Below, one piece after another: positions 20,515 to 55,433 of a stretch of DNA of 55,433 bases. Every line of letters begins with the position of its first letter. Within the stretch, counting starts at the first letter, position 1. The position numbers were made by a program, and so were the translations under genes. The notes under the pieces are model-generated. The model searched no databases, was not told the origin of the DNA, and saw only the letters and a list, made by a program, of their open reading frames with translations. The stretch covers positions 1-55,433 of the IMG/VR virus record IMGVR_UViG_3300043449_001455; one strand, 5' to 3'. This DNA comes from a virus. Lineage: Duplodnaviria; Caudoviricetes.

Positions 20515-20649
20515 CGGCGCCACCGGCAAGGTCTCGAACCACGGTAGCCACTGCAACCGCACTGAACGATTTCTTTGGGATCACTGCGGGATTCGGACGT
20601 GCGCGTAAGAAATACGGACGTGTTCGTAAGGTACGAACAATTGATGAAA

Positions 20650-20725
20650 TGGTGAGCCGGGAGGGATTCGAACCCTCGGCCAGTTGATTAAAAGTCAACT
20701 GCTCTACCCCTGAGCTACCGGCTCC
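20650..20725 (-). tRNA. tRNA-Lys (UUU), 76 nt with encoded CCA
   Basis: GGAGCCG acceptor stem, D-arm AGCTCAGGGGTAGAGC, anticodon arm GTTGA-CTTTTAA-TCAAC, T-loop GTTCGAATC, 3' ACCA. Confidence 0.95.
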
Positions 20726-20730
20726 AAGCC

Positions 20731-20959
20731 TGCGCGAATGCTGCGCGAACGGCTATTTTGCTACTTGCTAACCCCTTGCGTTCAAATGCAAATTTGCCGT
20801 CGATCAACTGATTAAAAGTCTCTTTCTATGGTCTCACGGAACTTCACGGAATCTCATTAAGTATCTGAATAACCGGCATTTATTAGGATTGCTTTTTCCG
20901 CGCCGTTCGCGCAACTTACCGCAAATTCGCGCAAATCTGCGCGAATAGTGCGCGAACGG
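20731..20959. other. Putative attP: core TGATTAAAAGTC with arm-type repeats
   Basis: Core at 20809-20820 equals the tRNA anticodon arm (20685-20696); TGCGCGAA at 20731, 20742, 20938, 20949 and inverted at 20906, 20926; directly upstream of the integrase. Confidence 0.7.
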
Positions 20960-20967
20960 AGGGACGC

Positions 20968-22107
20968 ATGAAGCGTGACTGGAAGCCCGATACGAAGGTG
21001 GCCGGCCTGGGCCTGATGGTCATGCCGAGCGGGGTGTCGACCTGGTATCTGCGCTACCGCGAACCGGGCGGCAAACAGCAGCACCACAAGATCGGCCGGG
21101 CCGATGTCCTCAACCGCACGCTGGCCCGCGAGGAGGCGCAGAAGATCCTCGTGGCCGCCGCCCAGGGCAAGTCGCCCACCAGCGCCCGCCAGGAGCTGCG
21201 CACGGCCCCGACCATGGCCGACCTGTACCGGCGGATGGTCGCCGAGCACTACCCGAAACTGCGCCCGGGCACCGCAAAGAACTACAAGAGCATCTGGGAC
21301 GTTCACATCATCCCCAAGCTCGGCCGGCACAAGATCCAGGCGGTCACCAGCGCCGACGTGATGAAGCTGTTGATGCGAATCCGGCCGATCCAAGCCAACC
21401 GGTGCCTGGCAGTGCTGCGCAAGGCGTTCAACCTCGCGATCCTGTGGCAGCTGCGCCCCGACAACCCCTGCTCCAAGGTGCCGAGCAACACCGAGCGCAA
21501 GCGGCGGCGCTATCTGTCAAACGAAGAGCGGCAGCGGCTGGTGGCTGCACTGGATGCGATAGCCACGTCGCCACTGCGGTGGCGTTTCGCGCAGCTGGTG
21601 CGGTTGCTGATGCTGACGGGGTGCCGGGTGGGTGAGATCTGCCGCGGCAGGTGGGATTGGGTCGACGAGAAGGCAGGGCTGATGGTGATCCCGCCAGAGA
21701 GTCACAAAACCGGCCAGAAGGTGGGCCACGAGCGCGTAGTGCATATTCCTCCTGCAGGAATTCTCATCTTGAGAGAACTGCGTCTCAAATCGAATACACA
21801 GTGGATTATCGCAGGGGATGGCGACGGCCACCTAGTGGGGTATCAGAAGCTCTGGGAGGAGTTGATGCGCATCGCTGAAATCAAAAATTTCCGCGTGCAT
21901 GATGCTCGGCATCACTGGGCATCGGTGGCGATCACCAAGGTCGGCTTGACGCTGCCACAGGTCGGCAGCCTGCTTGGCCATGCCAGCCCGCTCACCACCA
22001 GCCGCTATGCCCACCTGCTGGAAGATGGCGCACAGGCGATGGCCGGAGCCGTTGCCGATCAGATTGGCGTCGGATCGTCGCCGTCCTGGAAGCGACAGGC
22101 GATGTAG
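20968..22107 (+). CDS. int: Tyrosine integrase with N-terminal arm-binding domain
   Basis: TGCRVGE (R), HDARH (HxxR), LLGH, RYAH (Y); GGAGGG RBS. Confidence 0.95.
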   Translation: MKRDWKPDTKVAGLGLMVMPSGVSTWYLRYREPGGKQQHHKIGRADVLNRTLAREEAQKILVAAAQGKSPTSARQELRTAPTMADLYRRMVAEHYPKLRPGTAKNYKSIWDVHIIPKLGRHKIQAVTSADVMKLLMRIRPIQANRCLAVLRKAFNLAILWQLRPDNPCSKVPSNTERKRRRYLSNEERQRLVAALDAIATSPLRWRFAQLVRLLMLTGCRVGEICRGRWDWVDEKAGLMVIPPESHKTGQKVGHERVVHIPPAGILILRELRLKSNTQWIIAGDGDGHLVGYQKLWEELMRIAEIKNFRVHDARHHWASVAITKVGLTLPQVGSLLGHASPLTTSRYAHLLEDGAQAMAGAVADQIGVGSSPSWKRQAM

Positions 22108-22370
22108 GCCGGCTCGCCCTCGTCGCTCAGTACCGGCTGCACCTCCTCGTCGCAGATCATGTTGAACAACGACACGTGGGCCATCACCTCGGTGAGGTGG
22201 TTGGCCAGCGCGGTGTACTCGCTCTCGCCAACGATGCCGATGCTGTCCGGGTCGGCGTAGACCAGAAACATCATGGCCGCCTCCTTTGGGCGGCCGTCAC
22301 GAAACAGGTCGTAGGCCGTGCGCAGCCCTTCTTCGGGCGTCACCGTGCCATCGCGGGTGGCGAATCTCAT
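22059..22370 (-). CDS. Hypothetical acidic protein
   Basis: ATGA-coupled to thyX; 3' end overlaps the integrase end. Confidence 0.65.
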   Translation of the reverse strand: MRFATRDGTVTPEEGLRTAYDLFRDGRPKEAAMMFLVYADPDSIGIVGESEYTALANHLTEVMAHVSLFNMICDEEVQPVLSDEGEPAYIACRFQDGDDPTPI

Positions 22371-25614: not shown

Positions 25615-26802
25615 TCACTTTGAGACCAGCATTGCCCAGCCGGAGCCTGGGCCTTCGACCTCCCAGCGCCGCAACCAGTTCTTCCGGCTGTAGACCACAC
25701 CGGCGCCCTTGCTGTTGACGTAGTCGCCATTGACCAGGTCGCACTCGCCGTAGGGGTCGTTGTGGATGATGCTGGTGGTGTTGAACCCGATCGCCACGCT
25801 CCAGTGCCCGCCGCCGCTGGGGGCCGCTGCTGGGCCCTTGTGCAGCCAGCCCACACCAACGGGCCGGCCGGCGCGCAGCTCGCGCTCCAGCATTGCAACG
25901 GTGCAGCTCTGGATGAACTGCGGCTTCAAGCCCAGTGCCTGCAGAGTCTTGATCTGCGCCGTGGGCTCGGTGGTGTCGCCGTACTGGGCGCGGATGGCGT
26001 TGTATTCGTCGTCTGATTTCACCTTGCCGTGGAAGGCCGCGATCATGGCCATGCTCGAACTGAAGCACTCGCGATAGCCTTGGCCCGACTTGTTGTCGCG
26101 CTGGCTGAAGTAGGGGACGGCCAGCTGGATCGCATCGAACGTCTCAAGGCCGGGCATTTCGGGCATGTCCTTGAGCCAGAGATCACCTTCAGCCTTGCGC
26201 CGCCGCTTCAGGCCGGCCTCCACCGATGAACCCGGATTGCGGTAGAGCATCATGGCGCCGGGTACGTCCTTCCAGCGCTTCTCGCGCAGCGCCTTGCTGA
26301 TGGTGGCAAAGCCCTCGGTGCCATAGAAGCCGGAGCCGAGGTTGTACGCGAAGCTGATCAGCGCCGACTTCTGGTTATCGCCGAGCTCCTTCCAGGCCGG
26401 GATGGTCTGTGCGAGTTTCTGACAGATGCGGTCCATCTCAAGCCGCAACAGCATGTCGGCTTCGATGGCGTTGATCTTGTCGCCCTGCTTCACCGGCCGG
26501 CCATCGCCGTAGCGGGTGGTGCCGTAGCCGATCGTGGCGACCTTCCAGCCATGCAGTGGGTCTGCGTATGCCTCAAGGTGGCAGCCCTCGAACTCCTTGA
26601 TCAGCGCCAGCCCGGCCGACAGATCAGCTTGCTTGCCGTCCTGGCTCCAAGTGTTGAACCACGGCCGATCACGCCGCATGGCGTCCTCGTAGCCGTTCTC
26701 GCGCAGATCGGCCTCCAGCTCGGCGATGGCGGCCAGCTGGTGGGGCAGGCCGCGGTAGAAGCGGAACAGCTGCTCAAGGGTGATCGGTGCGGTGTTGCTC
26801 AA
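25615..26802 (-). CDS. Modular endolysin: GH24 lysozyme plus C39-like peptidase
   Basis: IKEFEG..AYADP...TIGYG...GLKRRR; VPYFSQRDN...ECFSSS...GGGHWS...NDPYG; TTG start. Confidence 0.9.
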   Translation of the reverse strand: MSNTAPITLEQLFRFYRGLPHQLAAIAELEADLRENGYEDAMRRDRPWFNTWSQDGKQADLSAGLALIKEFEGCHLEAYADPLHGWKVATIGYGTTRYGDGRPVKQGDKINAIEADMLLRLEMDRICQKLAQTIPAWKELGDNQKSALISFAYNLGSGFYGTEGFATISKALREKRWKDVPGAMMLYRNPGSSVEAGLKRRRKAEGDLWLKDMPEMPGLETFDAIQLAVPYFSQRDNKSGQGYRECFSSSMAMIAAFHGKVKSDDEYNAIRAQYGDTTEPTAQIKTLQALGLKPQFIQSCTVAMLERELRAGRPVGVGWLHKGPAAAPSGGGHWSVAIGFNTTSIIHNDPYGECDLVNGDYVNSKGAGVVYSRKNWLRRWEVEGPGSGWAMLVSK

Positions 26803-55280: not shown

Positions 55281-55433
55281 GCCGAGCGACGCACACCTAA
55301 CTGTGAGCCGAGCGACGCACACCTAACTGTGAGCCGAGCGACGCACACCTAACTGTGAGCCGAGCGACGCACACCTAACTGTGAGCCGAGCGACGCACAC
55401 CTAACTGTGAGCCGAGCGACGCACACCTAACTG
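55281..55433. repeat. 26-bp tandem repeat array (right part)
   Basis: Five exact copies plus 23 nt of the unit seen at 1-155. Confidence 0.97.

Follow-up and report, generated by a model that had tools for sequence, protein, structure and literature searches.

Why should a phage genome hold, immediately upstream of its integrase gene, a complete tRNA-Lys(UUU) gene and, a short way off, a second copy of that gene's anticodon loop with no tRNA around it? The locus lies in a window of 55,433 nt, by which we mean the whole stretch of DNA that was analysed; it is IMG/VR record IMGVR_UViG_3300043449_001455, a complete virus of 55,433 bp with 127-bp terminal repeats. A first-pass annotation had proposed tRNA-dependent lysogeny at a host tRNA-Lys(UUU) in a cyanophage. 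Here, we find that the structural side of this proposal holds: the stand-alone copy is best read as the crossover site, the phage tRNA lies outside attP, and the host tRNA would not be rebuilt. This reading draws on homology to the classical attP sites of relatives, a link between short core and phage tRNA, simulated recombination, and agreement with the definition of tRNA-dependent lysogeny in the available text of PMC10865867; the integration event itself is something we infer. Overall, tRNA-dependent lysogeny at host tRNA-Lys(UUU), by way of a short core and a replacement phage tRNA, is the best-supported reading and in our judgment a probable one.

PHROG matches outline a lambda-like siphovirus gene set (terminase, portal, fused protease-capsid protein, tape measure and tail proteins), together with RecE/RecT-like proteins, primase, helicase, endolysin, ThyX, dCTP deaminase and one integrase, and the phage is probably a temperate siphovirus represented by its complete genome. 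Pfam assigns catalytic, SAM-like and arm-DNA-binding domains to the integrase; given the last of these, arm-type sites are expected around the core. The endolysin (25615-26802, minus strand) is a fusion of two domains, a phage lysozyme and a C39/C70-like cysteine peptidase. At each genome end (1-155 and 55281-55433) a 26-bp unit, GCCGAGCGACGCACACCTAACTGTGA, is repeated in tandem about six times, and the 127-bp terminal repeat is built from it; the arrays could have arisen where the assembly overlapped itself across a tandem array, or could serve in packaging or replication.

To judge from its layout, attP spans approximately 20731-20959, directly upstream of the integrase gene (Table 1). ARAGORN identifies the tRNA-Lys(UUU) as the sole tRNA in the window, and TGATTAAAAGTC occurs both within it (20685-20696), where it covers the anticodon loop, and at 20809-20820. 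These two copies, 124 bp apart as first described, are the only matches with up to one mismatch in all 55,433 bases, and two or more matches were reached in 0 of 100 shuffles, a figure to be read in light of the post hoc choice of motif. Their likeness extends, in degenerate form, to 24 nt at 79% (repeat family D3). Read in reverse complement, the core ACTGATTAAAAGTC corresponds to tRNA positions ~30-43, which comprise two 5′ anticodon-stem bases, the loop and the 3′ stem. No tRNA half was said to be attached to the second copy, and this is borne out: ARAGORN finds no tRNA there, and identity to a real tRNA-Lys 3′ half stops after 14 nt. The segment that a classical, tRNA-restoring attP carries, running from the crossover to the 3′ end of the tRNA, is absent from the attP of the window.

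Table 1. Features of the attP region of the window.
Feature	Position	Strand	Basis
Complete phage tRNA-Lys(UUU), CCA encoded	20650..20724	-	ARAGORN; outside the arm sites
P-arm: TGCGCGAA twice in direct orientation, 11 bp apart; putative arm-type sites for integrase	20731..20752	+	Repeat analysis, octamer count
attP common core ACTGATTAAAAGTC	20807..20820	+	Invariance in relatives; in classical relatives it runs on into a true tRNA-Lys 3′ half
Conserved tandem TCACGGAA motifs 10 bp apart, adjoining core on integrase side	20833..20851	+	Window sequence and alignment
P′-arm: four TGCGCGAA-type sites, two inverted and two direct; ends at integrase ribosome-binding site	20903..20959	+	Repeats I5, I6 and I11; octamer count; alignment
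Tyrosine integrase, 379 aa, N-terminal arm-DNA-binding domain	20968..22107	+	Pfam PF00589, PF13356 and PF14659 above cut-offs; PHROG 1 integrase, 6e-61

The arm-like repeats, reported to enclose the second copy only, are real as well. Positions 20725-20752 pair with 20932-20959 at 86% identity over 28 nt (repeat family D2), and the 22-nt repeats at 20731-20752 and 20938-20959 each consist of two TGCGCGAA units 11 bp apart. The octamer is present in ten copies in the window, six of them within 20731-20956. A total of ten is reached in 3 of 100 shuffles; the unusual part is the clustering, and the tRNA lies outside it. The six sites around the core would bind integrase. Every related attP locus has two copies of TGCGCGAATnnTGCGCGAA, which shows no variation in alignment A1. 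In the tandem TCACGGAA region, CTCACG..A.CTT is kept in all aligned loci; these motifs may be bound by an accessory or excision factor. Just past the tRNA 3′ end, at 20591-20630, lies a direct repeat (ATTCGGACGTGCGCGTAAG / ATACGGACGTGTTCGTAAG) that is shared, within the alignment, by the window and locus L004 only.

Relatives of the window clarify what the stand-alone core is. A search of viral contigs with the integrase gave 11 loci at 72-96% identity, six of which have tRNA-Lys in the same place and five of which have none. When the region upstream of integrase was aligned for 12 sequences, the arm repeats and GATTAAAAGTC proved invariant in all. This 11-mer (20810-20820) is identical in 12/12 aligned loci and in 13/13 distinct attP segments, the latter count coming from a search whose regular expression itself demanded the 11-mer. 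A related population in metagenome run X2 has C for T at core position 20819 (2 contigs; depth 38 of 38), so the invariance is not strict. In the tRNA-less loci, L008 and L009-L012 (the last four identical to one another in the attP segment), the core continues directly into TGGTGAGCGCTGTGGGGGTCGAACCCACGACCTAC, the reverse complement of the variable loop, T arm, acceptor strand and CCA of tRNA-Lys. Core and TGGTGAGCGCTGTGGGGGTCGAACCCACGACCTAC together thus make a textbook attP, which contains the tRNA from anticodon loop to 3′ end.

In total, four lineages are classical in this sense, each with a 47-nt tRNA-Lys 3′ half, CCA included, at the position of the window's core and flanked by the same arm repeats. 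Their integrases are 72-83% identical to that of the window in L008 and L009-L012 and 63% over 353 aa in L063; that of L056 is 74% identical over the 81 aa present before the contig ends. L056 and L063 have five TGCGCGAA-type sites each. The 47-mer is identical in L008 and L009 despite diverged flanks and integrases (74%). Minimal forms, by comparison, have 14 nt (ACTGATTAAAAGTC) in common with the tRNA half (11 nt in L005 and L006), the remainder being unrelated, and carry a full tRNA-Lys on the far side of the P arm. Later scans added L041, L042, L044 and L048 to the minimal set. Thirteen distinct attP segments fit the core-plus-P′ pattern, 11 minimal (the window included) and 2 classical, with L056 and L063 additional to these.

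This homology bears on one alternative, in which a transcription regulator of the integrase gene would bind the TGCGCGAA repeats as its operators and the conserved core would be regulatory too. The last repeats do abut the integrase ribosome-binding site, and the arm-site role of TGCGCGAA is putative, judged from motif placement. Operators would nevertheless leave unexplained why the core of relatives runs into a true tRNA half. The integrase, moreover, has an arm-DNA-binding domain, and the repeats stand on both sides of the core, ~60 and ~85 bp away, which is the P/P′ arm pattern. We regard the operator explanation as very improbable and continue to read the repeats as arm sites of an attP.

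The short core and the phage tRNA go together. A full tRNA-Lys is present with 11/11 distinct minimal attP versions and in 0/4 of the fetched loci of the classical lineages. Whole records were checked for tRNA in two of the four classical lineages, through G405 (the L008 genome, complete, 55.9 kb) and G408 (55% complete), and neither has one. The two forms do not simply sort into one clade each. L008, a classical locus, has an integrase with 95% identity to those of the minimal loci L007, L041 and L044, and in a midpoint-rooted integrase tree it nests with these three at 100/100 support, with the classical L009 basal; at least two switches, or module exchange, are needed. Nucleotide identity over capsid, portal and terminase is ~82% among the window, the classical G405 and the minimal G406. 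One kind of phage, its integrase all but unchanged, thus occurs in both forms, which implies the same attB. The link between tRNA and short core may reflect few evolutionary events plus recombination. We also considered whether the minimal form arose by aberrant excision of a classical prophage, and rejected this, as the P arm between core and tRNA is the wrong order. Some minimal relatives have, ~700-800 nt from tRNA-Lys, a weak second tRNA-like gene that is absent from the window: ARAGORN calls Cys(aca) in L041 (5905-5976) and Leu(caa) in L042 (2810-2884), and the one in G406 (G406:C1:11019-11089) scores 33.5 bits against the Rfam tRNA model.

The phage tRNAs themselves appear to be under constraint as tRNAs. 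Among 11 of them (9 distinct), the cloverleaf is kept, 99.5% of cells pair, and 11 of 21 pairs have changed on both sides, a level of pairing and covariation reached by 0 of 500 shuffles and nowhere near approached by slid registers. The UUU anticodon, A73 and CCA are kept in all. Otherwise they vary widely, diverging far more than the integrases: at least five versions of the anticodon stem are found among phages whose integrases are 82-98% identical. L007 and L041, with integrases 98% identical, have tRNAs with differing anticodon and T stems and a further difference at one D-stem pair, and the tRNAs of L005 and L007 are without the internal 11-mer.

Such strong divergence beside near-identical integrases argues against the tRNA as recombination site. 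A reading of that kind would have the full phage tRNA, by itself or within a long identity block, recombine with the host gene and restore it, leaving the stand-alone core as a dead relic; it could point to the 12-mer that the phage tRNA shares with the core, and to the records of HP1, HP2 and S2, where tRNA-Lys lies within or beside the annotated attP. Yet the arm sites surround the stand-alone core and not the tRNA, and it is at the core's position that the classical relatives have their tRNA half. The core is also the invariant partner: the tRNAs come in 9 distinct versions among 11, two of them (L005 and L007) lacking the 11-mer, and integrases as similar as those of L007 and L041 accompany different tRNAs. 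We consider this alternative very improbable, and take the stand-alone core to be the likely crossover site.

What would recombination at the core produce? As a stand-in for the host gene, we used the tRNA-Lys of L014, the 3′ half of which is identical to the classical attP, scripted the recombination at the core, and ran ARAGORN on the products. With this stand-in, tRNA-Lys was rebuilt in the simulated attL of 2/2 classical sites and 0/11 minimal sites. The sole tRNA of the minimal attL was the phage's own, co-oriented with the broken host gene, starting 94-100 nt after the core and lying ~50 nt past the point where the host tRNA would have ended.

These observations suggest the following mechanism. 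The core ACTGATTAAAAGTC would mimic the anticodon loop and 3′ anticodon stem of the host tRNA-Lys(UUU), and the arm-binding tyrosine integrase would exchange strands within the core and the host anticodon loop. Because the phage DNA after the core is no tRNA 3′ half, integration would destroy the host tRNA-Lys at the junction. The phage tRNA-Lys, ~95 nt beyond the core and outside the P arm, would land directly downstream of the truncated host gene in the same orientation and, in tRNA-dependent lysogeny, would supply the lost tRNA-Lys, which viable lysogens would then require. Since it is co-oriented beside attP, it would come to lie directly after the promoter and 5′ half of the host tRNA, and it could possibly be expressed by read-through from that promoter followed by processing. 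A simple scan for sigma-70-like promoters around the tRNA found 0 where 0.4 would be expected by chance, which says little.

It is also possible that the tRNA-Lys serves lytic growth or counter-defence, for example against anticodon nucleases, and that the short core is a decayed, little-used attP, the link between them being historical only. The discussion in PMC10865867 raises counter-defence in the part available, citing PrrC, which targets tRNA-Lys-TTT; the anticodon stems of the phage tRNAs are unusually varied, and integration was seen in no data set searched. On this account one would not look for arms, core and integrase to be conserved over 11 diverged minimal versions; that they are argues for a working attP. 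Nor does it fit well that the tRNA always lies beside attP, co-oriented and with constant spacing, and that no site with the 3′ half has one. AAA accounts for only 101 of 523 Lys codons in 39 ORFs, a rarity that makes a codon-supply role unlikely. As a replacement for the main reading we think a purely lytic or defensive role unlikely, though the two can hold alongside each other.

Indeed, the variation of the phage tRNAs leaves room for an extra role, such as evasion of tRNA-directed nucleases, an idea raised for phage tRNAs in the available discussion of PMC10865867. A bolder version may be sketched. Integration would swap the host's single tRNA-Lys(UUU) for a phage allele under the host tRNA promoter; the variation among alleles could reflect an arms race with tRNA-Lys-cutting nucleases, so that lysogeny would give the cell a nuclease-resistant tRNA-Lys, and a similar layout recurs in a second integrase family, that of phage Mano. 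We offer this cassette idea as speculation that is rather doubtful as it stands, and return to tRNA-dependent lysogeny, with or without a defensive side, as the reading to be placed in a host.

As to the host, the label of cyanophage is plausible but unproven, with evidence pulling in two directions. A cyanobacterium and an alphaproteobacterium each have, by our estimate, a chance somewhat short of even, and some other host is the least probable of the three. The best capsid matches are to Synechococcus siphoviruses (S-LBS1, 54%; S-CBS3 and S-CBS1, 49%), followed by roseophage CRP-811 (44%) and then phages of Serratia, Ralstonia and Achromobacter. For the two-domain lysin, the top matches among those listed are all Synechococcus phages, at 42-47% with both halves covered, the best of them spanning two adjacent or fused lysin genes. 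Short DNA matches to S-CBS3 and S-H1 were also seen. The terminase is equally near roseophages and S-LBS1 (~44%). Against a cyanobacterial host, the 45-nt tRNA half of the classical relatives was exact in only 7 genomes of a species-representative scan, all of them alphaproteobacterial MAGs labelled Salaquimonas, Rhizobiaceae or uncultured, in a scan whose 45-nt pattern contained the first C of CCA, so that genes not encoding CCA could escape it. Within 3 mismatches, the 44-mer was found in 1/401 sampled Alphaproteobacteria, namely the centre genome G002 itself, and the tRNA half is thus not typical of that group. An Atlas look-up of the integrase returned generic, Pseudomonadota-rich integrase clusters only. 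A Shine-Dalgarno-like motif (14/39 ORFs) was dropped as a host clue, being too crude with start codons uncurated.

Five of five genomes with the exact tRNA-Lys have one full copy of the gene. In two of the five, a duplicated 3′ half starts at tRNA position 30-31, which is the boundary of the core. The duplicated half in G003 (G003:C4:103742-110880; L069, L014) is ~7 kb from the full gene and ~170 nt upstream of an integrase 34% identical to that of the window; in G004 (G004:C21:30608-42395) the distance is ~12 kb. Both have the appearance of islands integrated at the site discussed here, bounded at the same point in the anticodon loop. Taken together with the attP halves of the classical relatives, these islands suggest that attB is the host tRNA-Lys gene. 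Eleven viral contigs (L057-L062, L064-L068) contain an identical 44-nt half plus CCA with neither a relative of the window's integrase nor TGCGCGAA repeats. Their flanks are alike in 10/11, L060 being different and L059 ending 8 bases past the half; CATCAC-type repeats are present in L058, L061, L062, L064, L065 and L067, and partly elsewhere, and the integrase region of L058 has 69-77% DNA identity to integrases of Achromobacter, Bordetella and Pseudomonas phages. The tRNA-Lys gene looks like an integration hot spot.

A check for attL/attR junctions or related prophages, as the first-pass annotation had suggested, turned up none in species genomes, metagenome contigs or viral contigs. The integrase scan of species genomes gave nothing. 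In a 401-genome sample of the order Rhizobiales, 60 genomes have integrase homologues, the best ~40% identical, and no close prophage was found; the capsid protein is absent from 5/5 exact-tRNA genomes. Scanning metagenomes for the core plus P′ side yielded 4 hits, all free attP with both arms and the tRNA, and the corresponding viral scan yielded 12, all free forms, of which 11 were already in our set and one was a new minimal member (L048). The public runs comprised 16 freshwater, lake, soil or wetland metagenomes, none of them isolate-derived. In the contigs of the 4 runs examined, no core junction was found among the matches listed, loose tRNA ends belonging to tRNAs of other organisms; this absence is not evidence against integration. 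Literature searches pairing 'tRNA-dependent lysogeny' with 'cyano-' words returned no title on cyanophage integration, and there was no match joining tRNA-Lys, prophage and picocyanobacteria.

To date, proof by experiment of tRNA-dependent lysogeny comes from actinobacteriophages only, and the discussion in PMC10865867 asks, in its available text, how common the strategy is elsewhere. Further candidates named in that paper and in PMC12429752 are a Lactobacillus prophage and Sinorhizobium prophages. The present phages, abundant in freshwater, offer a natural paired comparison, with near-identical integrases, a full or a minimal core, and a tRNA exactly when the core is minimal; the phage tRNA, in addition, is placed so as to inherit the host tRNA locus. 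The pattern also supplies a simple rule for searching metagenomes: look for arm repeats enclosing a lone anticodon-loop core, and for a cognate tRNA alongside. If the host is a picocyanobacterium, the finding bears on the long-standing scarcity of documented lysogeny there, as described in the available text of PMC6157547, and a freshwater picocyanobacterial host would make this a rare, well-defined lysogeny module for the group.

How does the locus compare with known systems? A similar layout is found in Achromobacter phage Mano (MT708550.1, record positions 20770-22306; L070), in which a tRNA-Lys on the minus strand is followed by ~50 nt, a stand-alone element resembling an anticodon stem-loop (ACTGTTTAAAAGTCAGT), CATCAC-type repeats and an integrase. 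Mano is cultured and annotated as P2-like, and its integrase family and arm motifs differ from those of the window. L058, with an integrase ~69% identical in DNA to that of Mano, has a classical tRNA-Lys half near CATCAC-type repeats, so the two-form pattern may exist in an unrelated integrase family. On this arrangement of motifs, we put Mano forward as a candidate for tRNA-dependent lysogeny in a betaproteobacterial phage. Haemophilus phage HP1 has a tRNA-Lys match within or beside its annotated attP. The HP1 tRNA reportedly lies in an extended segment shared unchanged with the host tRNA operon, and it is rebuilt. The tRNA of the window, by contrast, lies outside the arms and is different from the inferred host tRNA.

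The cyanosiphoviruses S-LBS1, S-CBS1 and S-CBS3 have genomes of 30-35 kb, compared with 55 kb here. An integrase is described for S-LBS1 (PMC6157547); according to its methods, that paper looked for tRNA genes, and its available text reports none and no tRNA-linked attP, proposing other att motifs. The classical relatives (L008, L009-L012, L056 and L063) share with the window the integrase family, the arm repeats and the left identity boundary in the anticodon loop, the last shared also by the islands of G003 and G004. These relatives retain the entire 3′ half, CCA included, and have no tRNA apart from it, whereas the window keeps only 14 nt.

The closest parallel is the tRNA-dependent lysogeny described by Guerrero-Bustamante and Hatfull (mBio 2024, PMC10865867). 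Four traits define it there: the integrase is of the tyrosine type; attB overlaps a tRNA; the core measures ~10 bp (Table 2 of that paper lists 8-17 bp) and leaves the tRNA unrestored; and lysogeny requires a cognate tRNA from the phage. The commonest target is tRNA-Lys-TTT. There, too, long and short forms are contrasted: Boilgate and Ximenita have cores of 43-45 bp (long-core range 43-49 bp) and no tRNA, and Fionnbharth and Cain have cores of 10-11 bp and a tRNA. Like the actinobacteriophages Fionnbharth (K4), Cain (K6), LeBron (L1) and Gaia (X), the phage studied here combines an arm-binding tyrosine integrase, a probable tRNA anticodon target and a cognate tRNA; its core of 11-14 nt falls beside their 8-17 bp and is so short that no tRNA would be rebuilt. 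Close relatives that differ in form are found in both settings, Cain and Ximenita there, L007 and L008 here. Unlike those cases, the host here is probably no actinobacterium and the phage is uncultured, known here from sequence alone. A further difference is the position of the tRNA. That of Fionnbharth overlaps gene 37, outside the intergenic region between attP and int, and a promoter of its own has been demonstrated for it (PMC10865867); the one described here lies beside attP and is co-oriented. As the pattern is the defining one of tRNA-dependent lysogeny, we class the locus as a probable further case.
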